The position numbers and the translations under genes were made by a program. A DNA stretch of 38,662 nucleotides from an uncultured Nitrososphaerota archaeon (GTDB lineage Archaea > Asgardarchaeota > Njordarchaeia > Njordarchaeales > Panguiarchaeaceae). Under the pieces are notes generated by a model. The model saw only the letters and a program-made list of their open reading frames with translations. It did not search any database and had not been told where the DNA came from. Positions 4,170 to 25,323 of this stretch are shown one piece after another (position 1 is the first letter of the stretch; every line of letters begins with the position of its first letter). Where the stretch lies: contig CAZVPA010000003.1 of NCBI GenBank assembly GCA_964628995.1, positions 6,590 through 45,251 on the forward strand, in the 5' to 3' direction.

Positions 4170-4174
4170 CCATA

Positions 4175-7321: not shown

Positions 7322-7951
7322 GTGATCTGGATGGACACCTCGGAAACACTTAGACGCGTTGAGCTTGATATTACATGCCCTGTATGCAAGGTAGGCTCCC
7401 TCACGATGCTTTATAAAACAATATTAATACCCTACATAGGCCAACTTTTGATCTCCACAATAATATGTTTCACCTGTAAATTTAAGATATCAGATATCTG
7501 GATCGTAAGTAACACAGGAAAATATCGCAAAAAATACCAAACAAGCATTACCGAGGACACAATAAATAACCTCGTGTGTGCCAGTGCTGGAGCAAGAATA
7601 ATGGTTCCCGAACTTGGGGCAGAGATAGACATAAGGACATTCGATGGCGCACATATAACAACAGTTGAGGGAATTCTAAGAGAAATCCTAGACGCAATAA
7701 ACATGCTCATGGATACCGCAGAAAACCCAGCAAAAGCTGAGAAACTCAAGGCCATACTGATGAGCGAAATAGAATCACCCTCAGGAAAATTAACCCTAAT
7801 ACTGGAGGATCCACATGGACATAGTACTATAATCCCGTATGAATACTGGGTACAAAGAACTGAAATGGATCGCCAAGCCCAGATAAACCCTAAAGAAATA
7901 GCGAAAAAAATGATAGAAAAGTGGAGAGAAATCGAGAAACCCCCTATGTAG
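7322..7951 (+). CDS. ZPR1-type zinc-finger protein
   Basis: CPVC...(IPYIG)...CFTC is followed by ARIMVPELGAEIDIRTFDGAHITTVEGILREI, which is the ZPR1 zinc finger plus A-domain pattern. ATG at 7331 is an alternative start. Confidence 0.72.
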   Translation: MIWMDTSETLRRVELDITCPVCKVGSLTMLYKTILIPYIGQLLISTIICFTCKFKISDIWIVSNTGKYRKKYQTSITEDTINNLVCASAGARIMVPELGAEIDIRTFDGAHITTVEGILREILDAINMLMDTAENPAKAEKLKAILMSEIESPSGKLTLILEDPHGHSTIIPYEYWVQRTEMDRQAQINPKEIAKKMIEKWREIEKPPM

Positions 7952-8768
7952 ACCTAAGTATTTGTCTTCTCAAACGCTCAAGCCGCATGACATCAACGAA
8001 CACTATGAAGAATGTAAATATTACCACAGCAAGTATCAGAGGCCACCCATATACCGCAATAATATTTTCTATATTAGCACTTTGAAATACCAAGGAAGTT
8101 AAGAAGAACACCATCGCTATGAGAAGTGACTTGTATAGAACCCTCGCAACATCAGTACCCTCCGCAAAAGTACTCCTAATTAACATACTCCAAGATCTCT
8201 TAGCCGCGCCAATAAATCTAGTGAACTGCGATGCATCCTCCCTAGAAATCCTATTAGATATCCTCCCCAACATATCTTCTAACCTCTCAATCGCTACTCT
8301 ATGCTCATTAATGGCATCAAACATGCGTTTCTGCATCCATGATGACAGATAGAATACTATAGAGATCACAATAAAAAGCAATACTGACACTACAGCAAGT
8401 ACTTGAAGACCAGCAGTAAAGTATGCCTGATAAAGTATGAACCCGATCGCTATCCATACAAGCAGCAAAGATATTGTCAGCCTAACAATATAGACAACAA
8501 ATCTGCTCAGGGCAAAAAGTACCACAGCAACCATAAAAAATGCCACAACTAACGTGACCATACTTATATTCAGAACCGCAGGGACATTCTTTTCAATCAA
8601 ACCTGCTGCCACAAGTACTATAAGCAGTGCTACTATGGTCTCAACAATTATTGTCGTAACCGCGAATGCATATGCAAAACCAGTAGTCTGAAGTTTAGAA
8701 CGCAACCTTCCTATCTCCGAACCACGACTCATAATAGACACCATATATTGTGGATAGAAATACAACAT
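7944..8768 (-). CDS. Integral membrane protein, unknown function
   Basis: There are about 4 N-terminal TM helices, a ~70-aa charged helical loop (NEHRVAIERLEDMLGRISNRISRED) and 2 C-terminal TM helices. I recognised no family motif. Met-13 (8732) is a possible true start. Confidence 0.55.
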   Translation of the reverse strand: MLYFYPQYMVSIMSRGSEIGRLRSKLQTTGFAYAFAVTTIIVETIVALLIVLVAAGLIEKNVPAVLNISMVTLVVAFFMVAVVLFALSRFVVYIVRLTISLLLVWIAIGFILYQAYFTAGLQVLAVVSVLLFIVISIVFYLSSWMQKRMFDAINEHRVAIERLEDMLGRISNRISREDASQFTRFIGAAKRSWSMLIRSTFAEGTDVARVLYKSLLIAMVFFLTSLVFQSANIENIIAVYGWPLILAVVIFTFFIVFVDVMRLERLRRQILRST

Positions 8769-8816
8769 TTATAACACATTAAAAGGAGGTGAGATAAAAT
8801 TATATGGAACCTACTC

Positions 8817-9590
8817 GTGATGGATTCGGCTGGGACACTCATATATTCTTGGTTACATCCAAAGGCCCCGAAGGATCTGCTCAAGAAGTATGAACCTACG
8901 ATGATCGCTGGGTTCATAAGTGCGATAATCAAATTTGGATATGAGATAATAGCACAGCCCCAGCGGATAGACTTTGGAGACATAGCTATGAGCTTTTTCT
9001 CCCTAAAGATAGCGGATAGGATATTTTGGTTCACTATACTCTCGGATACCTCAGACCCACGGCGCGCCACTATAAGATTTCTCCAAGAATTTGTCCAAAA
9101 AGCGAGAGAACTTCTATTAGAAATCAGCGCCGTAGAAGGATTCGCGATACTATCCCAAGATACCGAGAGAACATTAAATAGCATTGTCGAGAAAATCCTC
9201 AGAAAAACAACAAGAATACTACCGGAAATACGTTCAGATGACAAAAAAGCGTTACCATTCGCGATACCCTTAACATTAATCATAACTATCATTCTGAACA
9301 CTACTTTCTACGCATATATAATTCCCTCAATAAGCCTCCCCCTAGAGGCCATAATAGGGATACTATTGATTAATTATGGGCTCATAGGAATATTAGGTGG
9401 CTTAATAAGTAGTAGGAGTATCGCTGGAGGAATCTCCGCGTACATTGCCGCTACAATATCACCACTAGCTTACGGATTAGGTCCTGGCCAGATACTCATA
9501 ATAGCGAGCTCCCTAAGTATTTGGAGTGGGATCGTTGGGATGATATTTGGATCATACATCAATTCCCGCAAGCTTACCCTACCTACCTAA
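8817..9590 (+). CDS. Membrane protein with an N-terminal soluble alpha/beta domain (longin/roadblock-like pattern) and ~4 C-terminal TM helices
   Basis: The N-terminal ~130 aa (GTLIYSW...MIAGFISAIIKFGYEI...DRIFWFTILSDTSDPRRATIRFLQEFVQKAREL) is soluble. The C-terminal ~110 aa is strongly hydrophobic and glycine-rich. The fold assignment is speculative. Confidence 0.5.
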   Translation: MMDSAGTLIYSWLHPKAPKDLLKKYEPTMIAGFISAIIKFGYEIIAQPQRIDFGDIAMSFFSLKIADRIFWFTILSDTSDPRRATIRFLQEFVQKARELLLEISAVEGFAILSQDTERTLNSIVEKILRKTTRILPEIRSDDKKALPFAIPLTLIITIILNTTFYAYIIPSISLPLEAIIGILLINYGLIGILGGLISSRSIAGGISAYIAATISPLAYGLGPGQILIIASSLSIWSGIVGMIFGSYINSRKLTLPT

Positions 9591-12197
9591 TAGGTTCCTT
9601 ATTTTTTCGTACATCGCGAGGATCCATCTCTCTCTATCGGCCATTGTCAGTACATCACTAAGAGCCGCCAATACTATCCCTTGTGCGAATGGACTTAGTG
9701 TTTTAACATCTACCTTCTCAACACAGACAACATCTATATCGCCCCTCTTCATGCCTTGGAATACCTCCTCAGCATGTATGACATCCATATAGTCCTCGAG
9801 TATCTCCCTATACGTCTCCTTGATCACCGGAAAATCCTCTGGGAGTAACCTAACAAGGACGCTTGCCTTTAGCCTCTGCTTCCTAACAGAGATCTCTGTT
9901 CCCTTGTACCTGCGGAGAATCATGAAGGACCTATTAGCAACATGCCTAAACCTATTGATGAACAACTCTGTATTTCTAATAGCCTCCTTAAGAGCACTAA
10001 TAAATTCTGTCCTGAAAGCCCTATCAATTATGACCTGAGGATCAGGGTTCACATACCATGGAAATACCAGATCAAAACCATTATCCGTAACGCCAATCCC
10101 AACATTACAGCTATAGATCTCAGACGCAATAAACGCAAAGAAGCGAGCCAACGCATCACACGTACGTCTCCCATAGGCAGCATGAAAGATCAGGTGAGTC
10201 CTGTTATACTCATCCACCCATCTCTCGATCAGAATTCTCCTATGCGTAGGAACCATCCCGAGAAATCTTATCTGGTCGCGGAAATACCTAACCACATTCT
10301 TAATTGTCGAGTCATCCGCATTGTATTTCTCTCTTAGAACCCTCTTTACCTCCTCTACCCTATCCCTCTTGAGTAGACGCTCCATTTTCTCCCTGAACTT
10401 ACCAATCTCTATCGATAGATCATATGATCGTGGTAGTTGTTCCCCAACCCACGATGGGACAGTAGGATTCTCCTTCTTGGCCTCGACAACTATGACCTTA
10501 TCATTCTTTATTCCATCAACCTTATACTTCCGGCCAGCAAGAATAAAAACATCTCCTGGAACAAGCCTCTCCACAAATGGTTCAGAGAGCATACCTATCC
10601 ACATTTTACGGCCATTCCTCTTAAGGTAAACCTTATAGTCCGCCTCATCGGGAATCGCACCTTGGTTAAGATAATATATCATCCGGGCCATTCTCTTCCT
10701 CCCAAAAACACCCTCCTTTTCATCAAACCAGAGTTTCCGATAGACCTTCTGATACTCCAAATCGACATGCTTCCCAGCCAGATAGTTCAGAACATCCATG
10801 AACTCCTCAAATGTCAGATCATGATAGTTGTAGGAGCGCTTTATAACGCGATAGGCCTCCTCCACATTCCACTTTTTCTCAATACTCATCGCCACTAGAT
10901 GTTGCGCCAAAATATCAAGACAATTCTTGGGGATCGATACCTTATCCAGTTTACCATCATAGGCACATCTAGCAAGAACCAATAGTTCTACTAAATCATC
11001 CTCATCTAGGGCTAGAAAACGCCCCCTAGAAACCCTATGTATAGCATGGCCAGCCCGACCGATTCTTTGAAGCCCCTTCATCACAGAGCGGGGTGATCCT
11101 ACTTGGACAACTAGATCTATGTAGCCAATATCTATCCCCAATTCTAGGGATGTCGATGTTACGACAGCGCGCATTCTACCATTCTTAAGAGCATCTTCTA
11201 CATCAAGTCTGACTTCCCTGCCCAAGGAGGAATGATGAACCCCTATCTTTTGTGCCCATCTCTTACCAAGTTCCTTCTTTAATTTGTAGGCGACAGCCTC
11301 AGCGCCCGCACGGGTATTTGTAAAAATTAAGGTTGTCCGGTACTTCTTGACGAACTTCTTGAGGATCTCATACATTTCTCTGGAGGCGCGTTCCCTAAAC
11401 CTCAAATCGTCGGATGGACATATAACCTTCAAATCGAGCTTCTTTATCCCCAGGACTTCAACAATATAGCACTGCCTAGGCGTACCATCATCATTAAAGC
11501 CCACAAGCCACTTGGCGATTTCCCGAACTGGAGCTTGCGTGGCTGAGAGCCCTATCCTAACAAAATTCTTCGCGAAAAACTGGAGTCTCTCGAGCGATAG
11601 TGATAAGTGGACACCCCTCTTATTATCAGATAGCTCATGTACCTCATCGATAATGACCCACTCAACATCGTATAGCTTATAGCGGAACTTTGGGGCCAAA
11701 AGCATATTCGCCAGACTCTCAGGAGTAGTAATTAATATATGGGGAGGCTTCCTAAGCATCTTAGAACGTTGAGAAGAAGAAGTATCACCATGCCTGACAA
11801 ATATCCTTATCTCTGGGAGCTCATACCCCATCTCCTCCGCTACTTTCCTTATCCCCTCATAGGGAACTTGAAGGTTCTTTCTAATATCATTACTCAGCGC
11901 GCGGAGAGGAGAAACATAGATACAGTAAACCTTGTCCTCAAGCCTGCCCTCCTCACCAAGTCTAAACAACTCATCAAGAATGCCAAGAAATGCTGCTAGG
12001 GTCTTCCCACTTCCAGTAGGCGAGAAAATAAGGACATTCTTCCTGGCCTTTATCAAAGGAATAGCATATCTCTGAGGCTTAAGGAACCTCCTAAATGTCC
12101 TCCTGAACCACTCAGCGGTATACGGCCTCAACAGACCCAGAACTTCCTTATTACTGGGAGGCCTCTTACGTACTCTGACTATCCTACCCAATGGCAT
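9579..12197 (-). CDS. lhr: Lhr-type large ATP-dependent DEAD/DEAH-box helicase
   Basis: Motif I is SPTGSGKTLAAF, motif II is IIDEVHEL, motif III is SATQAP and motif VI is QRIGRAGH. A ~400-aa Lhr-type C-terminal domain follows. The ORF track extends to 12257, but MPLGRIV (ATG at 12197) is the more plausible start. Confidence 0.88.
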   Translation of the reverse strand: MPLGRIVRVRKRPPSNKEVLGLLRPYTAEWFRRTFRRFLKPQRYAIPLIKARKNVLIFSPTGSGKTLAAFLGILDELFRLGEEGRLEDKVYCIYVSPLRALSNDIRKNLQVPYEGIRKVAEEMGYELPEIRIFVRHGDTSSSQRSKMLRKPPHILITTPESLANMLLAPKFRYKLYDVEWVIIDEVHELSDNKRGVHLSLSLERLQFFAKNFVRIGLSATQAPVREIAKWLVGFNDDGTPRQCYIVEVLGIKKLDLKVICPSDDLRFRERASREMYEILKKFVKKYRTTLIFTNTRAGAEAVAYKLKKELGKRWAQKIGVHHSSLGREVRLDVEDALKNGRMRAVVTSTSLELGIDIGYIDLVVQVGSPRSVMKGLQRIGRAGHAIHRVSRGRFLALDEDDLVELLVLARCAYDGKLDKVSIPKNCLDILAQHLVAMSIEKKWNVEEAYRVIKRSYNYHDLTFEEFMDVLNYLAGKHVDLEYQKVYRKLWFDEKEGVFGRKRMARMIYYLNQGAIPDEADYKVYLKRNGRKMWIGMLSEPFVERLVPGDVFILAGRKYKVDGIKNDKVIVVEAKKENPTVPSWVGEQLPRSYDLSIEIGKFREKMERLLKRDRVEEVKRVLREKYNADDSTIKNVVRYFRDQIRFLGMVPTHRRILIERWVDEYNRTHLIFHAAYGRRTCDALARFFAFIASEIYSCNVGIGVTDNGFDLVFPWYVNPDPQVIIDRAFRTEFISALKEAIRNTELFINRFRHVANRSFMILRRYKGTEISVRKQRLKASVLVRLLPEDFPVIKETYREILEDYMDVIHAEEVFQGMKRGDIDVVCVEKVDVKTLSPFAQGIVLAALSDVLTMADRERWILAMYEKIRNLLGR

Positions 12198-12410
12198 CAC
12201 ATATGTGACTAAAGAGATTTTAGAGTCGTAATACGAGATAAAAACACTACTATACAACCAGGAGCTCCATAAAATCTCAACCTTTTATCTCAGTGAATAA
12301 TATCTACATATTGAAGAGCCTAGAAGACCGCCAAAGGAGGAGAATATGCGAATACGGAAACATGACCACGCATACTATAGCGATAGCTATTAGGATTATG
12401 GTGCTCTACA

Positions 12411-14312: not shown

Positions 14313-14750
14313 TCAGAATTGTGTTATTCTTTTCCATGAGATCTCTTCTATTTGTGAATACATTTCGTCATAGCTAACAAGCGTCATGTCTTCCTCGTAT
14401 GCGACCCCTGCATGTAGAGCGTCAAAGAAACCTAATTGTGGATATAGTGTCCTCAGGAAATCTGCGGTGATTATGTGGTTTGGTTTTATGGGTATTACAT
14501 CAATGTTGTATTCCCCGAGCTTATCAAAAATTATTATTAGGGCTTCATAGACCTCCTTGCTGCTTAGTCCATGGGAATATAGGACTGTCCTGAATTCGAC
14601 CAGAGCAGTTCCAGCTAGGTAGCATCTGATGTCTCCCTGACGGTGAAGTTTGAGGATCCCTTTTATGTATGGGTGTAATTTATCCCGTGGGTTAAGCCCA
14701 AAAATGAAGTCGGTCTCAACTAGGATTCGTGGGTATTCTTCAGTAACCAT
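14313..14750 (-). CDS. vapC: PIN-domain ribonuclease toxin VapC
   Basis: The acidic PIN residues are in the usual contexts: LVETDFIF, ...FFDALHAG..., VSYDE. It is 145 aa and overlaps the upstream antitoxin gene. Confidence 0.8.
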   Translation of the reverse strand: MVTEEYPRILVETDFIFGLNPRDKLHPYIKGILKLHRQGDIRCYLAGTALVEFRTVLYSHGLSSKEVYEALIIIFDKLGEYNIDVIPIKPNHIITADFLRTLYPQLGFFDALHAGVAYEEDMTLVSYDEMYSQIEEISWKRITQF

Positions 14751-14959
14751 TCTTCAGCCTGCTCCCTAGCTTTTCTTCCCCATTTTATTTTCGCAAGAAT
14801 TTTTGATAGCTTATCTATACTTGTGTCTATGGGCTTGACGAGCAAGCCATCCTTGTGCCTAATTATAACAACTTTTTTGCCAGCGGAAATACCATATTTC
14901 CTTCTCAATCTTTTGTTAATCAAAATTCTCCCACGACTATCGACTGTGGCTATCTCCAT
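14720..14959 (-). CDS. vapB: AbrB/SpoVT-family antitoxin VapB
   Basis: MEIATVDSRGRILINKRLRRKYGISAGKKVVI is a swapped-hairpin AbrB/MazE-type motif. The ORF track runs to 15010, but the ATG at 14959 is preceded by a T-rich TATA-like block about 20-30 nt upstream, which suggests a leaderless mRNA. Confidence 0.8.
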   Translation of the reverse strand: MEIATVDSRGRILINKRLRRKYGISAGKKVVIIRHKDGLLVKPIDTSIDKLSKILAKIKWGRKAREQAEEWLLKNTHES

Positions 14960-14971
14960 ATTATATCCCAT

Positions 14972-14990
14972 AAAACATAAAAAAAATGGG
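14972..14990 (-). promoter_or_regulatory. Putative TATA/BRE region for leaderless vapBC transcription
   Basis: The minus strand reads CCCATTTTTTTTATGTTTTATGGGATATAAT directly before the ATG. The T/A block is centred about 24-28 nt upstream of the start codon. Confidence 0.35.
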
Positions 14991-15435
14991 AAAAAATTAA
15001 AAGTACACATTTTTTAGTTGGAGCATACATTATGCTAGCGTATTGTGAGGAAAGTCTTCGTGCTACCGGCCTATTTGGGAGAGAATTATTGTCTAGGCTT
15101 CGATATTCTCTTGTATGGGTATATATGGCCCCATAATAGCATTAAGAATATTTGAATTTGTCTTATCAGCCAGCGAGTTGCCTATGCGAGGGGTTTCGGT
15201 TTTTGGTAATGGTCAAGAAAAGAAGCTTGACATTATGTCCAGACATTTTTTGTCCTTAATTTCCTTAGTTTTTCTATGGAGAGTAGTATACATTAAGGGA
15301 AGAAATGTTGGATATTATGTGCGACATTGTAGTTTCTGTGTATAACGCACATCCTACATAATGATTGATATTGTTGTTATCATTTATGTTTGGTTATTTT
15401 GTTGTCTGGTGTTTCGGGCTGGATGGGTGATATTA

Positions 15436-16719: not shown

Positions 16720-17563
16720 GAGGGTGATGGTGGCTGGGGCTCTCGCTACACGCTCTCATAAGGTAGCGGCAGACCTAGAAGTTACCGATGAGCAGATAGT
16801 GAAAATGCTTAAATGGACCAAGGAGATGAAGCTCTCCTCAGTACTGGACTTCGGGTACTATATAGTGTCGATAGAGGGTGTATCTAGAAGTTTCACACAT
16901 CAATGGGTAAGATATAGGATAGCGGCCCATATGCAGCAGAGCTTAAGATATGTAAAAGTAGACACGGGAAGTACTGATTGGTTTGTCATTCCTCCCGAAA
17001 TTGTGAAGAAAGGCCCGGATCTGGTTGTCCAATATATTAGGAGCGCTCTAAGGTCCGGTGAAATGTACCTAGAGTTAATCAATAGGGGTGTCCCCCCGGA
17101 GGATGCGCGCTTTGTTCTTCCAATTGGCGTCAAGACACATATTTCGTCAGCTTTTGATCCTGAGGAACTCATACATATAATCTACCAGAGAACGTGTTTT
17201 GATGCTCAATGGGAGATAAGAACTGTGGCTTATTCCTTATTATTGGCGGGCCTAATAGTTCATCCACGAATTTTTGAGGGTGTTGGACCAGCATGTCTTT
17301 TTATCGGTGAGGAAAAATGTAGAGGGTCACGGAAAGGAGTATGTAGGGAGGATGCCAAAAATATCATAGAAGCACTCAAAAAAATCGCTAATGAGTATAG
17401 AAAAAAATTTGAAAATGTCCCTCCAAGCGAGTTTCTGAGGATAGACCTTACGGATGTCCTTGGCTATAGGGCTCCAAGAGATATTGTCATTGAGGTCTCA
17501 CGGAGGCTTGGCTTCCGGGTTAATCTAGATCTAGATGTTATACTGGAGGTGAGAAAGAAATGA
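16682..17563 (+). CDS. thyX: Flavin-dependent thymidylate synthase ThyX
   Basis: The ThyX signature is present as SFTHQWVRYRIAAHMQQSLRY (RHR-x7-S-x-RY with H replaced by Y). The likely start is ATG 16682 (MRIILWDY...), which overlaps the glyA 3' end by 38 nt. The ORF track start is 16598. Confidence 0.85.
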   Translation: MRIILWDYLEDAERVMVAGALATRSHKVAADLEVTDEQIVKMLKWTKEMKLSSVLDFGYYIVSIEGVSRSFTHQWVRYRIAAHMQQSLRYVKVDTGSTDWFVIPPEIVKKGPDLVVQYIRSALRSGEMYLELINRGVPPEDARFVLPIGVKTHISSAFDPEELIHIIYQRTCFDAQWEIRTVAYSLLLAGLIVHPRIFEGVGPACLFIGEEKCRGSRKGVCREDAKNIIEALKKIANEYRKKFENVPPSEFLRIDLTDVLGYRAPRDIVIEVSRRLGFRVNLDLDVILEVRKK

Positions 17564-18324
17564 GGAGATACAAATTCCTAAGGGATTCCTTCTTTGCGTT
17601 CTTTTTCATGATGGGAATCATCGTATTCTCGAAGATAAAGCTTCACCATATCTTTGGAACGAATGCTAAGTTCTCACTACTGACAATGTTTGGTCCCTGT
17701 GTAGAAGCATTTATTGGGACTGGACTTAGCTTGGTCGTTATCCTTGGAGCGCGCTTCCTGCAAATTATCATTGGCATTTCTGGAGCCCCCAATGTTTTCT
17801 CATATATCATTTATCTTCCCATCTTCTTTGCGAGTCATTGGTTTGGAAATCTTGTAAAGGGAATGGGTAAGGAAAATAAGCGGTCTATTAAATATTTAGC
17901 GGTGATCCCCCTAGGATGCATGATGCTCTTCATTCTTCACCCAATAGGTAGGGAGGTATGGTATTTCAGCCTCTTCTGGCTCATACCAATAATCATACTG
18001 ATGGTGTCCAATTACTTAGAGGAAAAGCTCATGGAGAGAGAAATCATACTGGTATATCTATATGCCCTTGCAGCAACATTTGTTGATCATTGTGTTGGCT
18101 CAGTTCTATTTCTATATTTCCTTAGGATTCCTGCGGTTTATTGGAGGATAGCCATACCCTATGTTCCACTGGAGCGCGCTGTCTACGCATTGGGGATAGT
18201 ATTCTTCTACCTATTTATTCGTAAGTCTGTGGATGCGCTCCATACTATCGTGATTATTGGGTTTATCCAAGTTCAGGAGCGGGAAGAGGAGGCCATAGGA
18301 GAATGGGTTGGAGGGGCCTCCTAG
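17560..18324 (+). CDS. Polytopic membrane protein, unknown function, translationally coupled to thyX
   Basis: It has an ATGA start/stop overlap with thyX and about 6-7 predicted TM helices. I recognised no family signature. Confidence 0.6.
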   Translation: MRRYKFLRDSFFAFFFMMGIIVFSKIKLHHIFGTNAKFSLLTMFGPCVEAFIGTGLSLVVILGARFLQIIIGISGAPNVFSYIIYLPIFFASHWFGNLVKGMGKENKRSIKYLAVIPLGCMMLFILHPIGREVWYFSLFWLIPIIILMVSNYLEEKLMEREIILVYLYALAATFVDHCVGSVLFLYFLRIPAVYWRIAIPYVPLERAVYALGIVFFYLFIRKSVDALHTIVIIGFIQVQEREEEAIGEWVGGAS

Positions 18325-18782
18325 AAGGGATCTATTACTATTCTTTGTTTTTGGGGTTCTGGCTCCATTATCTGGGCTAGTCTGAACTTTACCATTTTTC
18401 CCTGTTTTTTCGAGATGAGTATTCCCTCCTTCTCCATTCTCCTCAGATACGTTATTGTTGTTGAGGATTTTAATAGTACTCCATGGAGATCATAGTAGGC
18501 TTCTCTGGCATCTATTGATGTGAACCATTGGCCATACCTGAACGCTGACATTATTGTCTCCTTAAACTTAGTATAGATGCTGGTTCTGTCCTCCATAGGC
18601 TCGCCGTATTGTCTTGCGGGATCTCCGACACTAGATGGGGAATTCTGTGGTGTTGTTATATGGCCCGCGAATGGTTGGAGTATATTTTTGAGTGCCATTA
18701 ATGTCTCCTTATTAAGCTCTCCATCGGCCTTTATCTCGATTTCTGTATTCCCCATCCTTACTTTTATGTGGAGTGTTGGCAT
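18321..18782 (-). CDS. Hypothetical protein with a C-terminal winged-helix-like domain
   Basis: The 153-aa protein has a C-terminal segment (FTSIDAREAYYDLHGVLLKSSTTITYLRRMEKEGILISKKQGKMVKFRL) with a helix-turn-helix plus wing pattern. The N-terminal ~50 aa is beta-rich and is followed by a Pro/Ser linker. Confidence 0.5.
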   Translation of the reverse strand: MPTLHIKVRMGNTEIEIKADGELNKETLMALKNILQPFAGHITTPQNSPSSVGDPARQYGEPMEDRTSIYTKFKETIMSAFRYGQWFTSIDAREAYYDLHGVLLKSSTTITYLRRMEKEGILISKKQGKMVKFRLAQIMEPEPQKQRIVIDPF

Positions 18783-18880: not shown

Positions 18881-19504
18881 TCATACTGATAAATCTTTGT
18901 CCCATTCAAACATGTAATATCTGACTTTGCTGTCCCTCACACATGCGAGGACCCATCGTTTCCTAACACTCCAAGAAAGTCTACCAGAACGTAGGAAGTC
19001 TTGTCCCTTTAGTCTTACTTGTTTGCTGAAAACACTAACAGCGAAAAGTGAGTGGTCTATTCCGGGGCCATAGACATATACCACGAAGTCGGCACCGTAT
19101 TTTAGGCCAGGTTTTACTATGAAGCCTCGCTCTCTCAGGTCTCTATATACGGTATACTTGGCGATGAAATCATCCACAACCCTCGAGGCAACCCTTATAA
19201 TTGTCTCTCTATCCAATGTTTTTCCTCCACATATTATTCTTATTATACCTTTCTCTAGCAGATAGAGGGCATCGTAGAAGGAGAGCTCATAGAGGGTCCT
19301 ATACTTGTATATCTTTGGTTTCCGTATTCCTAGGGGTTTTCCGAAGAATCCTGCCTTGTAGAGGGCATACCCGTGCTCTGGATTCCATATAACTATTCTA
19401 TTTCCCTCTAGGCTTGCTTCTATGTCCAGTTGACGCAAGGCCTCTATCTTCTCTCTTCTCTCACGCAGAAGCTCCTCCGGTATGGATGTTATCTCCCCTT
19501 TCAT
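18881..19504 (-). CDS. endA: tRNA-splicing endonuclease, catalytic subunit
   Basis: YTVYRDLRERGFIVKPGLKYGADFVVY...HSLFAVSV and a downstream basic loop (SVRKR) give the Tyr/His/Lys catalytic-domain pattern of archaeal EndA. Confidence 0.88.
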   Translation of the reverse strand: MKGEITSIPEELLRERREKIEALRQLDIEASLEGNRIVIWNPEHGYALYKAGFFGKPLGIRKPKIYKYRTLYELSFYDALYLLEKGIIRIICGGKTLDRETIIRVASRVVDDFIAKYTVYRDLRERGFIVKPGLKYGADFVVYVYGPGIDHSLFAVSVFSKQVRLKGQDFLRSGRLSWSVRKRWVLACVRDSKVRYYMFEWDKDLSV

Positions 19505-20503: not shown

Positions 20504-20785
20504 ATGGTTGTTGATCTGGTAATCCAAGCTCTCTCAGCCCCATTCTCGATAACAATACTCTACCTACTACATAAATATGGAGAAATGAAACTATCAGAAC
20601 TCTTGGCAAATATCGGGTTCTCAAAATATAAATCTGTAAGGAAGACACTAATGATTCTCGCAAAAGTAGGGCTCATAAAGATCGCGATAAAACATATATC
20701 ACCCAGAGTAAAGGCCTGGAAAATAAGAATAACTGACCATGGTAGAAGAGTGATTGAAGGCATCATAAAGAGTGTAAGCTCCTGA
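20504..20785 (+). CDS. Small winged-helix DNA-binding protein (putative transcriptional regulator)
   Basis: The 93-aa protein carries ILYLLHKYGEMKLSELLANIGFSKYKSVRKTLMILAKVGLI...WKIRITDHGRR, an HTH plus wing pattern of ArsR/HxlR-like proteins. Confidence 0.55.
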   Translation: MVVDLVIQALSAPFSITILYLLHKYGEMKLSELLANIGFSKYKSVRKTLMILAKVGLIKIAIKHISPRVKAWKIRITDHGRRVIEGIIKSVSS

Positions 20786-20868
20786 TGCGGGGGGCGGGAC
20801 TCGAACCCGCGCAGGCATCCGCCACTGGGTCCTCAACCCAGCCCGTTTGACCTCTCCGGAACCCCCGC
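20786..20868 (-). tRNA. tRNA-Leu(GAG), class II with a long variable arm
   Basis: The reverse complement reads GCGGGGG-TT-CCGGAGAGGTCAAACGG-G-CTGGG-TTGAGGA-CCCAG-TGGCGGATGCCTGC-GCGGG-TTCGAGT-CCCGC-CCCCCGC-A. It abuts the stop codon of the convergent wHTH gene. Confidence 0.9.
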
Positions 20869-20944: not shown

Positions 20945-21841
20945 CTAGTAAACTAATAGAAACCATAGTAGTGTTGCTGCCAGCAGTGGGAAGAGTAGGT
21001 TGTCATTTATCCGTAGTTCTAGCGCGCCGTTCAGAAAGTCTACTGTGGCTATTGCTAATGCTACTAATATCGCTATTATTCCTACGAAGAAGTATCCTAC
21101 GATTGATCCAGTTATGAAGTTTGCTAGGAATCCTTCTAAGCTTCTATCCTTGTAGGCTATTTTTCTTAGTTTTTTCCCTACGATACATGCGGCTAGATCT
21201 GATAGTAGCCCCATTGCTATGGCTGCGCATACTATGTTGTCGTAGGGGAAGAATAGGAGTGATATTATGTATATGGATGTGGCTGTGTAGATATATGAGG
21301 CGATCCTGTCGCTTTCTTTTTCTCTTAGTAGTTGTGTGAATAGGTCTGGTTTGTATGTCAGTCGGATGTACTCAATCGTTACGAATAGTATGAGTAGTGA
21401 GTATGTTATTAGGAATATCACGAAGCTGTAGTATCCTTGGTTATACTTTGAGGTAGTAATTCCTGATAGTGATGTGAAGCCGTAGATTGCGGATATATAT
21501 GACATCCATACGACTGCTGGGGGGATGAATACCAGAAAACCTACGAGGTGGAATAGTTTTCGTTTTATCTCCATACGGTAATTGCCCGTATTTGTCGTCT
21601 GCCCTCCAGAGAAGTAGTTGATTATTATAACTACCAATGTGATAACGGGAATTATTACTGTGGCAGCCGTAAGTATGAATACTTGCGTCGCGGGAGTGAA
21701 TGGTTTCCATATCGCGAGATATGCTATGGATAATACGAGCATAAACAACAATAGGCACTGATTTCTCATATCACTCCTCTTCTGGTAGATTATCATACTT
21801 ATCATAAGAACGGGAGCCAGCAGGGGAATAATAATCAGCAT
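20945..21841 (-). CDS. Polytopic membrane protein of the CTP-transferase family (dolichol/polyprenol kinase-like or CDP-alcohol synthase-like)
   Basis: It has about 8 TM helices. KRKLFHLVGF and the C-terminal LLSDLAACIVGKKLRK...RSLEGFLANF resemble the D..A...G...G....KS.EG motif of the phosphatidate cytidylyltransferase/dolichol kinase family. Confidence 0.5.
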   Translation of the reverse strand: MLIIIPLLAPVLMISMIIYQKRSDMRNQCLLLFMLVLSIAYLAIWKPFTPATQVFILTAATVIIPVITLVVIIINYFSGGQTTNTGNYRMEIKRKLFHLVGFLVFIPPAVVWMSYISAIYGFTSLSGITTSKYNQGYYSFVIFLITYSLLILFVTIEYIRLTYKPDLFTQLLREKESDRIASYIYTATSIYIISLLFFPYDNIVCAAIAMGLLSDLAACIVGKKLRKIAYKDRSLEGFLANFITGSIVGYFFVGIIAILVALAIATVDFLNGALELRINDNLLFPLLAATLLWFLLVY

Positions 21842-21963
21842 ATTGCCCCACGTGATCTCCTTTACAGCAAAGCTGAGACATACAATGGAAAGGTAAGTAG
21901 CATTGGGCTTATTGCCATCGTTTTTTATTTTTCAAAAAAATATAAAAATAAAGGGGGTCTGAC

Positions 21964-22221
21964 TTGCCTAAGAAGAAAGGGAGGGGAGAAGATACGCTCT
22001 TAGAGCATCTTTCTAGAATTCTTGATGAGGCGCGGGAAATAGCTCAGAATGTAGACATGGAGGTTGAGGATATAAAGAGATTCGTGAACGAGGTCATAAA
22101 CATGTTTATTACTGATGCTAGAGTTATTAGAGATCAGCTGTTACTAATGGCTTATCGCGTCGCTGAGCTTGAGAATATGGCTTATGAGAAGATAGAGAAG
22201 GAGAAAAGCGAGACCAAATGA
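21964..22221 (+). CDS. Small charged coiled-coil protein, unknown function
   Basis: The 85-aa ORF has a TTG start and is predicted all-helical and acidic/basic (EDIKRFVNEV...ELENMAYEKIEKEK). It ends 33 nt upstream of the PglZ gene. An AT-rich TATA-like run and GGGGG lie just upstream. Confidence 0.45.
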   Translation: MPKKKGRGEDTLLEHLSRILDEAREIAQNVDMEVEDIKRFVNEVINMFITDARVIRDQLLLMAYRVAELENMAYEKIEKEKSETK

Positions 22222-22254
22222 TCTTGGTGAATAAGTATAGGGTATGGGGACATA

Positions 22255-24696
22255 GTGGAAAAGATCTTTAGGAATATATTGGATGATAGCGACCTAGAGG
22301 CATTACTGGGAAGCACCGACATGTATAGACTTCTTAAAATCGAGGAAAAGCTCATGGCTTTAGAGGGGGTTGTTCCTCCGATACGTGATATACTTCCAGT
22401 AATCCATGCGTGCGTGTTTGAAGACGCTAAGTCTAGAAAAAAACTATTGGTTGACTCGATAAAGAGGATGGGGCTTCTTCAGAGGGTATGGAGCCCAAAT
22501 GAGGCTCTAAAGAGGAAAATAGAGGAAACATTTTGGGAGGTTAGGGATATCGGCATTGATAGGGTACTTGGGGGAGTGATTTCTGCGATCCATAGATATT
22601 TGGTAAGTGGGGATGAAAGTGCTATAGACCTAGCAATCATGATGGTTTCGGTTCTTCTCTCGCAAAGTATTGATGAATACGTATGTTCTGGGGTATCTCC
22701 AAGGGAGAATATGGACTCTTTTCTGAGGAAGATGAAGGGCATGTCATTGGCCGATACTGATGGTATGTTGACGCAAGTACTGGATAATATCTATAAGTAT
22801 GTCCCAAAGGAGATCACGGAAGAATTCATAATGTCACTTAGTCTGTTATTTGGCTGGGGGAGGGAAGATATCAATACTAGTAATCTGGTTGGAAAAGCAA
22901 AGGATGATGCCCAGAAGGTAGCGAGGATACTGCTCCTCATAATCATTCTCTCCATAGTAGCTAAACACTACAAAGGTATTCGTCGAGATATGCTGAGTAT
23001 TGAAACAATACGATGGATAATGAGACTATGTATGGCTGCTCGGGGGGATATAAGGATTAAAGCATTAATTGATGCGGTACGCTTCATATGTGTGTCTGGT
23101 AGGGGTGTTGTAAGGATTTGTTTATTGTTACAAAGGCTTATTGAGGTTCATGGAGGCGAAATACTTGTCGAGGTTATGGACAAAGTGATTCCAGCCAATT
23201 TCCTTGGAGACGCCGCAAAAATGCTTGTATTTGTTAACTCGTTGAGGGGGTACATGCCACAGAAAATTATTGCCCAAGCTGTAAGATCCAGTAAGTATGA
23301 GTTGAGGGTTTTAAATATGGCTCTTCTCGAGCAGAAAGTGAGGCCTAGGGGAATAGCATTGGCTATTCCTTGGGAGCTTTATGGGAGGCCTACAGAACTC
23401 CTTAAGGCATGCAAGGAGGCCTTAGATTACTTCAACAACACAGGAGTAAGAGTTCCAACAAGGTTTTTGCTACTTAGGAAATTTCTAGAGCTTGTTCGCC
23501 AGGCAGAGGGAATACACAAAGAAGACATTAAAGGTATGGATATCGAACAGCTAATCGGAATAATACCATTATTTATGAGGCTTAAAAGAATATCGGAAAA
23601 GCTATTTGGGAAGATGAAGAAATTCTACGGGTACGTTCCGGGAATATATAAGATCATGAGGCAGGTAGATACGACCTATGGTTTCTTGGTTAAGAAGTGG
23701 GAGTATATGATCCTGAGTAAGTACAGAGATCTGTTGGATGATAAAGCTGAGCTATTTACGATGAGTATAGGTAGGGAATTCTCAACCACGCGCATGGGCG
23801 AGGCCAGCGTGTTAGTAATAATCGATGGCCTGAGGTATGATGACTTTGTCGTGTCTCTTGTACCGAAGCTTCTGAGGATAGGTTTCAGGAAATTGCTGAT
23901 AAAACCTAAGATATCTCTCTTGCCCTCAATAACAAATATCTCGCGTATGGCGATAATAGAGGGCTGTAGACAAAATGTATTCGCAATAAGTAAAAGGCTA
24001 CGGAGGAAGGAGGAGGACATAATTAAAGGAAAGTATGGAGATATGGAGTTCTACTATGGCCCTCTAGATGTTATTCTAAATAAATTTAGGGCTAAGTCAA
24101 AGCATTCGAGTCGACTAATATTTGTACTGAGTGAACTGGAGAAATCTCTCCACGGGGCATCAGAGGCCATGTTAGTGCATTTTGTTGAGGAGTATCTGGA
24201 CAGGATTGTTGAGTTATTGATGTATGTGGCATCCAGACTTGCGCAGAATTTTGATACTGTACGTATTCTTATATGTTCTGATCACGGTCTAGGCGTGTTC
24301 TTTAAGTATGTTGATATTGATGGTTTCGTAGAGGAACTTAGGAGAAGAAGACTGATTGATGGGGGTCTAGAACCCACAATAAAGGCACGCTATGCGCTCA
24401 TTCCACTGAGAAGTTCCACTGATTTTCTTGGTGTTGAGAATATATATCGGAATACTGAGGAATATAGACGTGAGTTCTGGTTAATAAGGGCAGATGAATT
24501 GGGTTTTGAGAGTATAGAGTTTAGGAGGATAGGGAGCGAGTTATTGACGGGAGTGAAGAGGGCTGACTCCGTCATCATTCTGTTTCCGAAAGGTAACACG
24601 AAGTTTATCAGGGGGCGGGGGGCAGTTTTTCATGGAGGCATAACACCAGAGGAAATGATTAGCGTCTTCGGCGTCTTCGAGTTTTCTTTTTCGTAG
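22255..24696 (+). CDS. PglZ-domain (alkaline-phosphatase superfamily) protein with a ~500-aa helical N-terminal region
   Basis: The C-terminal ~300 aa carries the PglZ signature set: VLVIIDGLRYDD (metal Asp), LLPSITNISRMAIIEG (nucleophile Thr), ILICSDHGLG and AVFHGGITPEEMISVF. The N-terminus has no motif I recognise. Confidence 0.75.
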   Translation: MEKIFRNILDDSDLEALLGSTDMYRLLKIEEKLMALEGVVPPIRDILPVIHACVFEDAKSRKKLLVDSIKRMGLLQRVWSPNEALKRKIEETFWEVRDIGIDRVLGGVISAIHRYLVSGDESAIDLAIMMVSVLLSQSIDEYVCSGVSPRENMDSFLRKMKGMSLADTDGMLTQVLDNIYKYVPKEITEEFIMSLSLLFGWGREDINTSNLVGKAKDDAQKVARILLLIIILSIVAKHYKGIRRDMLSIETIRWIMRLCMAARGDIRIKALIDAVRFICVSGRGVVRICLLLQRLIEVHGGEILVEVMDKVIPANFLGDAAKMLVFVNSLRGYMPQKIIAQAVRSSKYELRVLNMALLEQKVRPRGIALAIPWELYGRPTELLKACKEALDYFNNTGVRVPTRFLLLRKFLELVRQAEGIHKEDIKGMDIEQLIGIIPLFMRLKRISEKLFGKMKKFYGYVPGIYKIMRQVDTTYGFLVKKWEYMILSKYRDLLDDKAELFTMSIGREFSTTRMGEASVLVIIDGLRYDDFVVSLVPKLLRIGFRKLLIKPKISLLPSITNISRMAIIEGCRQNVFAISKRLRRKEEDIIKGKYGDMEFYYGPLDVILNKFRAKSKHSSRLIFVLSELEKSLHGASEAMLVHFVEEYLDRIVELLMYVASRLAQNFDTVRILICSDHGLGVFFKYVDIDGFVEELRRRRLIDGGLEPTIKARYALIPLRSSTDFLGVENIYRNTEEYRREFWLIRADELGFESIEFRRIGSELLTGVKRADSVIILFPKGNTKFIRGRGAVFHGGITPEEMISVFGVFEFSFS

Positions 24697-24964
24697 GTTT
24701 TCTTTTTCGTGTTTTTGCGGCCTTCTGTACGAGGTCTATTATTTCCTTTAGAATGAGTCTGTATCTGCCAGAGAGCTCAGGGTATGCGGATTTGAGTAGA
24801 TGTATGGCTTGGTCTATAATTTTTTTGTCGCATTTTTGTTTCCTTAGGTATTCTCTCAGGATGTTGAGATATCTGTATGCCTCTATTTCTTCTGATGATT
24901 TTAGTGCTGTAATGATATCCGATATGAGCTCGAAGACCAGTGTCGGGTCGCATGAGGGATTCAT
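24659..24964 (-). CDS. Small helical protein with a poly-basic C-terminal tail, unknown function
   Basis: The 101-aa protein has a helical body and the tail KAAKTRKRKPTKKKTRRRRRR. It has a 4-nt ATGA-type overlap with the upstream rnp2 (Pop5) gene. Confidence 0.45.
   Translation of the reverse strand: MNPSCDPTLVFELISDIITALKSSEEIEAYRYLNILREYLRKQKCDKKIIDQAIHLLKSAYPELSGRYRLILKEIIDLVQKAAKTRKRKPTKKKTRRRRRR
24681..24716 (+). terminator. Oligo-T tract cluster, a likely archaeal terminator for the PglZ gene
   Basis: GTTTTCTTTTTCGT occurs twice, followed by GTTTTTG. These runs of T straddle and follow the TAG stop at 24694-24696. Confidence 0.45.
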
Positions 24965-25323
24965 CTAGGGTCACCAAGGGAAGAGTTTTCTGAGAATAGC
25001 CTAATACTAGATGTTTTTTCTTTCAGTTTTTTAAGTGTTCCAGAGCAATATAGGTCATTTATGAATAGAGAAGATCCATCCAGCTCCCTGGTGAATGCCA
25101 ATACTACCCTTAACTTATTTAGTTGGTCTTTTGGACAACAGAGTATCCCTATTCCTCTTCTTGTGTCATATACGACGAGTCTAAACTTAGGAGCACAGAA
25201 GGAGCCATAAAGCTCGTATGCTTTTTTTCGTAATATTCTGATAAGGCTATCCTTACTAGGTAGGCTATTCTTAGAGATTATCTCAAATAGTATCCATCTA
25301 TGTTTTTCACGGGTCAATATCAT
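24961..25323 (-). CDS. rnp2: RNase P protein component 2 (Pop5/Rpp14 family)
   Basis: REKHRWILFEI...LIRILRKKAYELYGSFCAPKFRLVVYDTRRGIGILCC...SGTLKKLKE matches the Pop5 pattern (R.K.RY..FE, G.G...K......G.I.RC, SGT). Confidence 0.75.
   Translation of the reverse strand: MILTREKHRWILFEIISKNSLPSKDSLIRILRKKAYELYGSFCAPKFRLVVYDTRRGIGILCCPKDQLNKLRVVLAFTRELDGSSLFINDLYCSGTLKKLKEKTSSIRLFSENSSLGDPR

Follow-up and report, generated by a model that had tools for sequence, protein, structure and literature searches.

The 38.7-kb window (the whole stretch of DNA analysed) contains, on its forward strand, the gene c0, which the ORF listing places at 22255-24696 with a GTG start and which encodes an 813-aa PglZ-family protein. 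Upstream of it on the same strand lies s85 (21964-22221, TTG start), which encodes an 85-aa acidic protein (pI 5.1) and ends 33 nt before c0. An A/T-rich TATA-like element, ATATAAAAAT, was read by eye at 21940..21949 on the forward strand, 15-24 nt before the start of s85, and is a possible candidate for the promoter of an s85-c0 transcript. Divergent from these two genes is c2 (20945..21841, reverse strand), which encodes a 298-aa multi-pass membrane protein with a distant likeness to CTP_transf_1 proteins and polyprenol kinases. Farther upstream are a tRNA-Leu(GAG) gene (20786..20868, reverse strand) that belongs to the conserved neighbourhood, and c1 (20504..20785, forward strand), which encodes a 93-aa basic winged-helix (wHTH) protein with weak matches to Pfam HxlR/DUF4364 and to the PADLOC Csa3-wHTH model. 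On the other side, c5 (24659..24964, reverse strand; 101 aa with a Lys/Arg-rich tail) is convergent with c0, shares 38 nt with its 3' end, and forms an operon with the RNase P gene Pop5 (24961-25323, reverse strand).

ORFs of at least 90 aa were listed across the window; the main ones were assigned with Pfam, and those that were unassigned or large were searched with PADLOC. By Pfam, the other window genes are housekeeping genes. No BREX partners were detected in the window with Pfam or PADLOC, nor in 30+ related loci, which bears out the claim of the sequence-only reading that c0 is an orphan with respect to BREX. PADLOC returned no defence matches among the window genes except the canonical helicase Lhr, 10 kb away. 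Lhr is the only helicase in the window, and it resembles BrxHII-type helicases.

The catalytic PglZ domain of c0, which is of the alkaline-phosphatase superfamily, was delimited from Pfam PF08665 and the invariant columns of the family alignment to residues 516-813 (23800..24696, forward strand). PF08665 matched residues 519-678 of c0 with E=4e-5 and 24.1 bits, slightly below the gathering score of 25, and it was matched by 14 of the 14 aligned family members (E<=0.01, best E=2.2e-9). Judged by these matches, membership in PF08665 is convincing for the family and borderline for the c0 sequence by itself. The four blocks of c0, IDGLRYDD (residues 523-530), LPSITNISR (556-564), SDHG (675-678), and HGGITPEE (793-800), are invariant throughout the family, and the earlier description of a PglZ domain with four intact signature blocks therefore holds. 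Matches to the PADLOC PglZ models were marginal (E~1e-3), and the NCBIfam scores were 16.7 bits for BREX_PglZ_3 (cut-off 250), 11.6 for BREX_PglZ_1_B (cut-off 400), 10.9 for TIGR02687 (cut-off 270), and 17.5 for the PorX model (cut-off 300). The ENPP/NPP model PF01663 gave E=0.25 for c0 and was matched by 3 of the 14 family members; ENPP was weaker than PglZ by every measure. Response_reg was matched by none of the 14 members, and no conserved hydrophobic 19-residue segment, transmembrane segment, or signal sequence was consistent across the family. We conclude that c0 is a genuine gene for a predicted PglZ-type metal-dependent phosphodiesterase.

We propose, from their spacing relative to PorX, that the metal ligands of c0 are D524, T560 (the nucleophile), E629, H633, D676, H677, and H793, with D239, T272, D361, H365, D415, H416, and H500 as their PorX counterparts; the PorX residues R276, R438, and E507 (PMC9757075) would correspond to R564, R712, and E800, which are likewise invariant or almost invariant in the family. 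The spacing of the c0 ligands is identical to that of the PorX list (PMC9757075); HMMER aligned just the segments D524-R564 and H793-E800 to PorX, and the remaining equivalences are based on motif spacing. In the family alignment, D524, T560, E629, H633, D676, and H677 are invariant, and H793 is present in at least 90% of the sequences. The position of PorX D361 is occupied by Glu in the entire family (E629 in c0), whereas in BREX, variation at the D361-type metal site and at the H365 position is seen in only some types. To judge from the alignments, the active site of c0 is intact, with all seven PorX metal-ligand positions matched (D361 replaced by Glu).

An AlphaFold2 model of c0, for which 14 family members served as input, had a pLDDT of 87 and a pTM of 0.82. 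Its first ~510 residues are all-helical and lead into an alpha/beta domain, and the chain ends with the catalytic core at residue 813. When solved structures were searched with Foldseek, the best match was PorX (1.4e-10), followed by the BREX PglZ chain 9zn5_B (2.1e-8) and the ENPPs (~1e-5 to 1e-6); the top 18 PDB matches were all PorX and BREX PglZ chains. The alignment with 9zn5_B, a full-length BREX PglZ, extended over 740 columns with a TM score of 0.41, which suggests that the helical region preceding the core is comparable too. Against PDB sequences, the family profile matched PorX with E=1.6e-7 over the helical bundle, the N-terminal half of the PglZ domain, and the HGG..E block, and it matched 9ZN5 with E=0.21 only. 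In the model, the catalytic domain thus has the alpha/beta fold of the alkaline-phosphatase superfamily, with PglZ domains as its nearest solved relatives.

The N-terminal ~510 residues of c0 had no match in Pfam, NCBIfam, or PDB sequence families, in keeping with the earlier remark that an N-terminal region of some 500 aa could not be assigned to a family. On the basis of the AlphaFold2 secondary structure and identity comparisons, we divided off residues 1-429 (22255..23541, forward strand) as a fast-evolving all-helical region, in which IPWEL (residues 371-375, with E374 invariant) is the sole strongly conserved motif. Identity to the closest relatives is 22-30% in the N-terminal region, compared with 48-54% in the C-terminal domain and 50-86% in neighbouring genes, and the longer Njordarchaeota homologues carry an additional 110-175 residues at the N terminus. 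Divergence this extreme, as measured by these identities, is seen more typically in conflict genes than in housekeeping ones. Residues 430-496 (23542..23742, forward strand) form two long helices in the model, H430-458 and H462-496. The profile alignment begins within the helical bundle of PorX (PorX residues 115-299), and because these two helices match the helical bundle or linker found ahead of the catalytic domain in both PorX and BREX PglZ (domain layouts from PMC9757075 and PMC12839542), they may by analogy form a dimer interface.

The 85-aa ORF singled out by the sequence-only reading 33 nt upstream proved to be a genuine, co-oriented, conserved gene. Homologues that are 55-65% identical to the window copy were found in lineages L001, L039, L040, and L041. 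In the first three of these, s85 directly precedes c0 (in L040 it overlaps the c0 start by 4 nt); in L041 it adjoins the membrane-protein gene, and the contig stops short of the c0 position. The gene is known from five distinct genomes, all of the window's own sublineage, and no copy of it adjoins c0 in L012 and L013-15, the nearest of the other lineages, or in any Njordarchaeota locus. We take s85 to be a real, strongly conserved gene that is limited to the window's sublineage, where it is probably co-transcribed with c0.

Several other neighbours of c0 recur. The most widely conserved is c1, which lies no more than 2 kb from c0 in 11 of ~21 distinct lineages and is directly adjacent in 8, in two orientations among those 8. 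The c1 family comprises 18 clusters among 5.8e9 proteins, and its named members are from Njordarchaeales; divergent wHTH copies of this type also occur without a PglZ gene. Both c1 and c0 have the same narrow taxonomic range. The membrane protein c2 has no Pfam match, and hhalign related it to c30, a protein of Njordarchaeota, with probability 92% and E=8e-7; c30 in turn matched CTP_transf_1 (PF01148) with E=8e-5 and 23 bits (gathering score 24). Either c2 or c30 lies 0.4-0.9 kb from c0 in six lineages, and in Njordarchaeota a gene for a GPN-loop GTPase separates c0 from the c2-type gene. The same tRNA-Leu is directly upstream of c0 in L012 and L013, and aspartate carbamoyltransferase (ATCase) is a recurrent neighbour along with tRNA-Leu, c1, and c2. 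The gene c5 is conserved in L001, L011, and L013-15: c0 adjoins c5, Pop5, and the gene for pyruvate:ferredoxin oxidoreductase (PFOR) in the window as well as in L001 and L011, and it adjoins c5-Pop5 in L013-15. We regard c5 as a conserved neighbour that probably has no functional tie to c0. This syntenic housekeeping position of c0 is kept in at least four lineages of the clade to which the window belongs, and in Njordarchaeota, too, the loci have a housekeeping context. The conserved neighbourhood may reflect inherited gene order rather than functional linkage.

Relatives of c0 amounted to 21 cluster representatives among 1.84 billion (1.84e9), and the gene was present in 7 of 185,579 species genomes, at one locus each. 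All carriers are Njordarchaeota or related MAGs. In the databases searched, the family proteins are nameless or labelled 'hypothetical protein'. We found no viral relatives and no viral or plasmid-like context. A distant homologue in L030, 27% identical across 373 residues, sits within a CRISPR-Cas locus of type I-A; on one flank it has Cas7a, Cas5a, Cas8a, Cas3', Cas3'', and Csa3, and on the opposite flank HerA and Cas6. A cas locus surrounds the homologue in L030 only; the window and ~20 other lineages lack one, so that the defence context extends to 1 of ~21 lineages. The distribution and gene order indicate that c0 is a vertically inherited chromosomal gene of Njordarchaeota-like archaea. 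It is probably single-copy, although the MAGs are fragmentary.

The reading we prefer, and to which we give about an even chance, is that c0 is a cytoplasmic, probably dimeric, vertically inherited phosphodiesterase of oligonucleotides or nucleic acids that belongs to the PglZ branch and acts outside BREX. The cytoplasmic location is supported by the lack of a consistent hydrophobic 19-residue segment in the family. We infer the substrate class, dimerisation, partner roles, and cellular function of c0 as follows. Thr560 would attack the phosphodiester, with D524, T560, D676, and H677 forming metal site one and E629, H633, and H793 forming metal site two. By analogy with PorX and BREX PglZ, the substrate would most likely be a strand of nucleic acid or an oligonucleotide, possibly a cyclic one. 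Dimerisation, as in PorX, probably occurs through the helices at residues 430-496, and residues 1-429 would act as a regulatory or target-recognition module. The s85 protein is probably an accessory subunit or regulator of c0, and c1 may control c0 transcription in the wider clade.

The sequence-only reading had raised the possibility of a minimal two-gene defence module, which our results do not support. On that view c0 would be a stand-alone PglZ defence effector whose hypervariable N terminus senses an invader component and whose PglZ domain then cleaves nucleic acid of the invader or the host or breaks down a signalling nucleotide, and s85 would be a small adaptor or inhibitor, loosely like the BrxB-PglZ sub-complex of BREX. 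PglZ has already been proposed as the BREX nuclease effector (PMC12205998, PMC12839542), the N terminus of c0 evolves far faster than any neighbour while the catalytic domain and s85 are conserved, and the flanking domains of BREX PglZ show the same pattern of rates (PMC12839542). The 740 Foldseek columns shared with full-length BREX PglZ and the L030 homologue within cas genes point the same way. Against this, c0 holds its housekeeping position by synteny in the window's clade, has a housekeeping context in Njordarchaeota as well, and gave one locus per species genome; it has no ATPase, methyltransferase, helicase, or iSTAND partner; the PADLOC matches are marginal and the NCBIfam BREX PglZ scores (at most 17 bits) are far from their cut-offs of 250-400; viral relatives and viral or plasmid-like surroundings were not found; s85 is missing from most lineages; and a defence context was seen in L030 alone. 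The sequence-only reading had held that a universally conserved single-copy gene in a housekeeping context would speak against defence, and what we found comes close to that. Because of the hypervariable N terminus and the distant homologue in the CRISPR-Cas locus, we keep a defence role as an unlikely minority reading. A role as a PorX-like off-switch, in which c0 would degrade oligoadenylates, cyclic or linear, or further oligonucleotide signals such as type III CRISPR messengers, is distinctly unlikely. PorX, the closest solved relative, does cleave cyclic and linear oligoadenylates to NMPs and binds pGpG (PMC9757075), and the L030 homologue adjoins Csa3, a CARF-domain protein. However, the CRISPR context is that of one very divergent homologue, the L030 locus is type I-A with no Cas10 on the stretch examined, and neither cas genes nor CARF proteins occur near the window gene or in the loci of its 20 other lineages. 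The specificity of PorX is, moreover, not transferable to c0, because even BREX PglZ, among the pGpG-binding residues of PorX, conserves only R276 and N358 (PMC9757075). We consider it fairly unlikely that c0 is a clade-specific, stand-alone PglZ immune or signalling enzyme in which a helical sensor gates the nuclease or phosphodiesterase and s85 serves as adaptor, with one branch recruited to type I-A CRISPR-Cas and possibly degrading cyclic oligoadenylates.

Two further proposals draw on the neighbouring genes. The alkaline-phosphatase superfamily includes lipid-directed transferases, and c0 might, together with c2, be a phosphatase or phosphotransferase acting on lipid-linked substrates (polyprenyl or dolichyl phosphate) and tied to N-glycosylation. 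That c2 is related to a CTP_transf_1-like protein of the dolichol-kinase superfamily and recurs near c0 in six lineages, itself or as its Njordarchaeota counterpart, agrees with this option as first raised, and AglB is indeed inside the window. The recurrence nonetheless looks like ancestral synteny, since ATCase and tRNA-Leu are equally conserved neighbours, and in Njordarchaeota the GPN-loop GTPase gene intervenes. AglB is 18 kb off, c0 differs from EptA/LtaS-type enzymes in lacking a signal sequence and conserved transmembrane segments, and the nearest relatives in sequence and fold (PorX, BREX PglZ, and the ENPPs) are nucleotide-directed; a lipid substrate is therefore very improbable. Processing of RNA or tRNA ends, such as stripping off terminal or cyclic phosphates or trimming oligonucleotides, is suggested by RNase P Pop5 near c0 in the window, L001, L011, and L013-15, by a tRNA-splicing endonuclease near c0 in the window and L001, by the tRNA-Leu directly upstream in L012 and L013, and by a Clp1-type polynucleotide kinase and TatD nuclease in L003/L017, where TatD lies 14 nt upstream. 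Every such association is limited to one lineage, however, small archaeal genomes commonly carry such genes, and Pop5 is convergent with c0 and not co-transcribed with it, which makes this role improbable.

If c0 belongs to ordinary lineage-specific metabolism, its value is chiefly one of annotation. If the immune or signalling reading is true, PglZ would be a single-protein effector that dispenses with the ATPase and methyltransferase machinery of BREX, and the case would lie in relatives of the archaeal ancestor of eukaryotes. Because c0 is one protein, with no more than a small partner, it is potentially a simple system in which to study how a lone PglZ acts and on what natural substrate. 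The contrast between the very conserved s85 and the hypervariable N terminus of c0 is unusual.

To our knowledge, PglZ domains have been characterised in two settings only, BREX phage defence and the PorX response regulator. The ENPP/NPP enzymes share with c0 the superfamily fold and, as in PglZ, two-metal Thr-nucleophile chemistry, but they match c0 less well than PglZ does, are secreted or membrane-bound, and carry other accessory domains. BREX PglZ (BrxZ), for which the Acinetobacter protein (PDB 9ZN5) was our reference, has the same PglZ catalytic core as c0, and the non-catalytic parts of both evolve fast (for BREX, PMC12839542). It is an active nuclease that nicks DNA, and PglZ has been put forward as the effector nuclease both of BREX and of the BREX-related type-3 systems (PMC12205998, PMC12839542). 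In BREX PglZ, an N-terminal alpha/beta domain (inactive Swi2/Snf2-like) and a C-terminal beta-sandwich flank the core (PMC12839542), whereas the c0 model lacks both, being helical from residue 1 and terminated by the core, and BrxA, BrxB, BrxC, PglX, and BrxL are all missing near the gene. Type-3 BREX-related systems, in which the genes accompanying a bare PglZ encode a DUF499 ATPase, methyltransferase, helicase, and iSTAND protein, likewise provide an active PglZ domain outside canonical BREX, archaea included (PMC12839542), but c0 carries a helical extension of ~510 residues and has no such genes beside it. The Bacteroidota protein PorX, which is the response regulator for type IX secretion (PDB 7PV7/7PVA/7PVK, 8TED/8TFF, and 8P6F), differs in having a REC domain with a phospho-acceptor Asp, where c0 has ~430 unrelated, fast-evolving helical residues, and c0 is archaeal, with no PorY-like kinase and no type IX secretion context. 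PorX is nevertheless the best match to c0 in both family profile and fold; both proteins place a helical bundle directly ahead of the PglZ domain, and the seven metal-ligand positions, R276, R438, the HGG block, and E507 all have counterparts in c0. The c0 family represents a third PglZ architecture, a long fast-evolving helical region joined to a PglZ core, in a third PglZ setting, that of a syntenic chromosomal gene of Asgard-related archaea that stands apart from BREX and two-component partners.

The 813-residue protein under study is encoded at 22255-24696 (+ strand, GTG start) and follows, at a spacing of 33 nt, an 85-aa ORF with a TTG start (21964-22221, + strand). Residues 519-678 matched the Pfam PglZ model (PF08665) with an E value of 4e-5; its score of 24.1 bits falls slightly short of the gathering score, which is 25. 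The same model matched all 14 of the full-length family members that we aligned (alignment A1; best E = 2.2e-9). This search bore out the PglZ assignment made in the sequence-only reading; the match to PF01663 (NPP) was far weaker (E = 0.25). The PADLOC PglZ, NCBIfam PorX, and NCBIfam BREX-PglZ models also recognized the protein, but only at E values of about 1e-3, with scores one to two orders of magnitude under the curated cut-offs. A weak PADLOC Cas8b match to residues 124-192 (E = 0.011) was taken as noise.

The domain carries the motifs IDGLRYDD (523-530), LPSITNISR (556-564), SDHG (675-678), and HGGITPEE (793-800). Residues D524/G525, P557/S558/T560/S563/R564, E629/K630/H633/G634/E637, D676/H677/G678, and R712 are invariant in A1, and H793/G794/P798/E800 are nearly so. 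In PorX, a Bacteroidota response regulator with a PglZ domain, the metal ligands are D239, T272, D361, H365, D415, H416, and H500, and R276, R438, and E507 are core residues (PMC9757075). By motif and spacing, the ligands correspond, in order, to D524, T560, E629, H633, D676, H677, and H793 of our protein, and the core residues to R564, R712, and E800. Only the D361 position departs from the PorX ligands, with Glu in place of Asp, a change fixed across the whole family. As all of these positions are otherwise matched, the active site is intact, in agreement with the sequence-only reading. The protein is basic in all its parts (pI about 9) and has no hydrophobic stretch that keeps its position across the family, which fits a soluble, possibly nucleic-acid-binding protein.

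AlphaFold2 modeling with A1 gave a pLDDT of 87 and a pTM of 0.82; the single-sequence model reached a pLDDT of only 38, and all fold results are from the alignment-based model. Residues 1-510 are all helical, the last two helices being long (430-458 and 462-496), and residues 516-813 form an alpha/beta domain. When the family profile was compared with PDB sequences, PorX was matched at E = 1.6e-7 in an alignment that extends from the helical bundle to the PglZ domain beyond it and includes the HGG..E block, whereas the BREX phage-defense PglZ (9ZN5) was matched only at E = 0.21. A Foldseek search of the PDB with the model ranked PorX chains at the top (E about 1e-10), followed by BREX PglZ (9ZN5_B; E = 2e-8, 740 aligned columns, TM 0.41) and then by ENPP phosphodiesterases (E about 1e-5 to 1e-6). 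A BFVD fold search gave nothing below E = 0.03, and its matches were generic NPP/sulfatase or spurious ones.

The family is rare. A word-indexed search against 5.8 billion proteins retrieved nothing but the query itself, and an exhaustive comparison with 1.84 billion cluster representatives by phmmer yielded 21 proteins, the members being unnamed or "hypothetical" in the databases searched. A genome-contig scan with the single sequence found no loci; when the alignment was used instead to scan one genome from each of 185,579 species, seven emerged, one apiece in seven assemblies labeled Njordarchaeota, Promethearchaeati, or "uncultured (Nitrososphaerota) archaeon". JGI metagenomes yielded 22 loci from a small set of samples, and no relatives were found in IMG/VR viral contigs or PHROGs. 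For aspartate carbamoyltransferase (ATCase), the window copy is 64-70% identical to the copies of the closest relatives and of a Njordarchaeota-type locus, and the carriers therefore all belong to one fairly compact archaeal clade. Within the protein, residues 1-370 are 22-30% identical to the closest relatives and residues 371-510 are 31-36% identical; the PglZ domain reaches 48-54%. In the same genomes, ATCase is 70% identical, the subunits of 2-oxoacid:ferredoxin oxidoreductase (PFOR) 74-86%, a winged-helix protein (c1) 62-68%, a membrane protein (c2) 44-52%, and the RNase P protein Pop5 about 47%. No other sequence in the neighborhood evolves nearly as fast as the N-terminal helical region.

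We clustered the ORFs of all fetched loci and counted as distinct those lineages of the PglZ gene with less than 85% mutual identity; clustering gave 20, and loci L035/L036 added one more. Within the window's clade the position of the gene is stable. The window and L001 share the order c2(-), 85-aa ORF(+), PglZ gene(+), c5(-), Pop5(-), PFOR, where c5 encodes a small basic-tailed protein; L011 has the PglZ gene, c5, Pop5, and PFOR, and L013-15 have the PglZ gene, c5, Pop5, c2, and c1. In L012 and L013, tRNA-Leu(GAG) lies directly upstream of the PglZ gene (at 9638-9723 and 499-581, respectively). The typical Njordarchaeota-type order is a CTP_transf_1-like gene (c30), a GPN-loop GTPase gene, the PglZ gene, and c1, and then an ECF transporter or radical-SAM/SPASM gene.

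The 85-aa ORF has homologs only in the window's sublineage (L001, L039, L040, L041, and the same-species contigs L008-L010). They are 55-65% identical to the window copy, all are read with a non-ATG (Leu-codon) start, and in every case they directly precede the PglZ gene, with a 4 nt overlap in L040; the L041 contig ends before the PglZ gene, and there the ORF adjoins c2. The N-terminal regions of the PglZ proteins beside it are merely 25-37% identical, so the ORF is a real gene under much stronger constraint. No copy precedes the PglZ gene in L012, L013-15, or any Njordarchaeota-type locus. The gene pairing noted from sequence alone is found within one sublineage, of which the ORF is probably an accessory, and it does not define the family. 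Longer Njordarchaeota homologs carry an N-terminal extension of about 110-175 residues; the idea that the ORF is a split-off piece of it was rejected (hhalign probability 0.2%).

The gene c1 (20504-20785), which encodes the 93-aa winged-helix protein, lies less than 2 kb from the PglZ gene in 11 lineages and is directly adjacent in eight; two orientations occur. The c1 family matches the PglZ family in rarity, with 18 clusters among 5.8 billion proteins, and those members that carry a name are from Njordarchaeales. Despite a weak PADLOC match, c1 is not specifically of the Csa3 type (hhalign probability 6% against the Csa3 of L030); the likeness is generic to winged-helix proteins. Divergent copies of c1 adjoin a radical-SAM/SPASM gene in divergent orientation, with no PglZ gene nearby (L037:1250-3169 and L038:6384-8287), which suggests that c1 may be linked primarily to the radical-SAM/SPASM gene. 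The 298-aa membrane protein encoded by c2 (20945-21841) is a homolog of the c30 product by hhalign (probability 92%, E = 8e-7); c30 is itself a borderline CTP_transf_1 member, and one gene or the other lies 0.4-0.9 kb from the PglZ gene in six lineages. ATCase and tRNA-Leu are also conserved neighbors, the window's tRNA-Leu(GAG) (20786-20868, - strand) beginning one base past the c1 stop. Because these genes are kept equally, and because c1 occurs elsewhere without the PglZ gene, some of the linkage probably reflects gene order passed down within a compact clade. On the other side, c5 (24659-24964, - strand) runs antisense to the last 38 nt of the PglZ gene and shares 4 nt with Pop5 (24961-25323, - strand). 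Its product, 101 aa long and helical, has an extreme Lys/Arg tail (pI 10.2); the gene is kept with Pop5 in L001, L011, and L013-15, and the protein could be an unrecognized RNase P or RNA-binding partner.

The other genes of the window are archaeal housekeeping genes, among them those for ribosomal protein S3Ae, AglB/STT3, a TRAP-beta-like protein, ZPR1, Lhr, a MiaB-like radical SAM enzyme, SHMT, ThyX, tRNA-splicing endonuclease, ATCase, tRNA-Leu, Pop5, four-subunit PFOR, a DnaG-like primase, PRPP synthetase, and PolD DP2. No BREX partner gene was found in the window or in more than 30 related loci, which upholds the earlier statement that no BREX components surround the gene. PADLOC was negative for the unassigned and large ORFs of the window, with the exception of the Lhr helicase (9579-12257, - strand), which matched DpdJ (8e-131) and BrxHI/II (6e-77), a resemblance expected for any Lhr. 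We rejected it as a BrxHII-like partner, since its architecture is that of a canonical Lhr-core protein (Pfam DEAD, Helicase_C, WH_Lhr, DEAD_assoc), it is 10 kb distant, beyond at least nine housekeeping genes, and the related loci have no linked helicase of this kind. These scores show that a housekeeping Lhr can be mistaken for a defense helicase.

Elsewhere in the window (2079-4828 and 7322-7951), AglB/STT3 is followed immediately by the TRAP-beta-like gene (PF05753, E = 3e-11), with the ZPR1 jelly-roll protein nearby; these eukaryote-like secretion/chaperone genes are consistent with an Asgard-related host. The tRNA-Lys(UUU) gene (90-183, - strand) spans 94 nt, which implies an intron, and a tRNA-splicing endonuclease gene lies in the same window (18881-19504). 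A PADLOC-negative 145-aa PIN-domain (VapC-like) ORF overlaps a 96-aa upstream ORF (14313-15010, - strand); the two may be a toxin-antitoxin pair, which would be the only conflict-type element found in the window. Three ORFs of 153-274 aa (17560-18324, +; 18321-18782, -; 7944-8768, -) had no Pfam, PHROG, or PADLOC match, and the 153-aa one (18321-18782) is kept in L001 at 49% identity.

One lineage, L030, shows a defense context. There a distant homolog (1013 aa, 8048-11089; PADLOC PglZ 9e-9) lies within a type I-A CRISPR-Cas locus (L030:1429-15140) in the order Cas7a, Cas5a, Cas8a, Cas3', Cas3''-HD, Csa3 (CARF+wHTH), PglZ homolog, HTH protein, HerA, Cas6. On the available stretch we found no convincing CRISPR array, only two imperfect 24-nt repeats. 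In L003 (175-5738) and L017, 14 nt separate the end of a TatD-family DNase gene from the homolog downstream of it, so the two probably form one operon; beyond the homolog come genes for a MerR/HTH_17 protein and for a polynucleotide kinase of the Clp1 type. PorX acts on cyclic and linear oligoadenylates (PMC9757075), and together these contexts and this activity point to nucleotide or nucleic-acid substrates.

The best-supported reading is that the protein is a putative cytoplasmic PglZ phosphodiesterase of the two-metal type, in which Thr560 would act as the nucleophile. It would probably dimerize through the helices preceding the core, as PorX does, and would probably act on oligonucleotides or nucleic acid, with the variable helical region serving a regulatory or target-recognizing role. 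The gene would have been inherited vertically as a clade-specific chromosomal gene, the 85-aa protein would be a sublineage-specific accessory, and c1 is a possible regulator. The main rival, a role in defense or conflict, is favored by the hypervariable N terminus and by the CRISPR-Cas context of the L030 homolog, but we regard it as unlikely given the stable synteny, the single locus per genome, and the lack of partners and mobile-element signals. The minimal two-gene defense module suggested earlier is not supported: the same synteny speaks against it, and one of its two genes is confined to a sublineage. The other earlier suggestion, a lipid-phosphate substrate, has as its only basis the neighbor c2/c30, which may be there by descent, and we consider it very improbable.

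The predicted phosphodiesterase differs from BREX PglZ in having no partner genes and in falling short of the curated BREX models, and its model lacks the N-terminal alpha/beta domain and the C-terminal beta-sandwich of that protein (PMC12839542). It differs from PorX-type response regulators in having no receiver domain, and from "Type-3 BR" systems, in which PglZ is a bare domain beside a DUF499 ATPase, a methyltransferase, a helicase, and an iSTAND protein. Its architecture, Njordarchaeota-like restriction, and housekeeping context are not described in PMC9757075 or PMC12839542. As PglZ outside BREX is already known from PorX and the type-3 BR systems, the kind of protein is known, and this architecture, in this clade and in a housekeeping setting, is a new variant of it.
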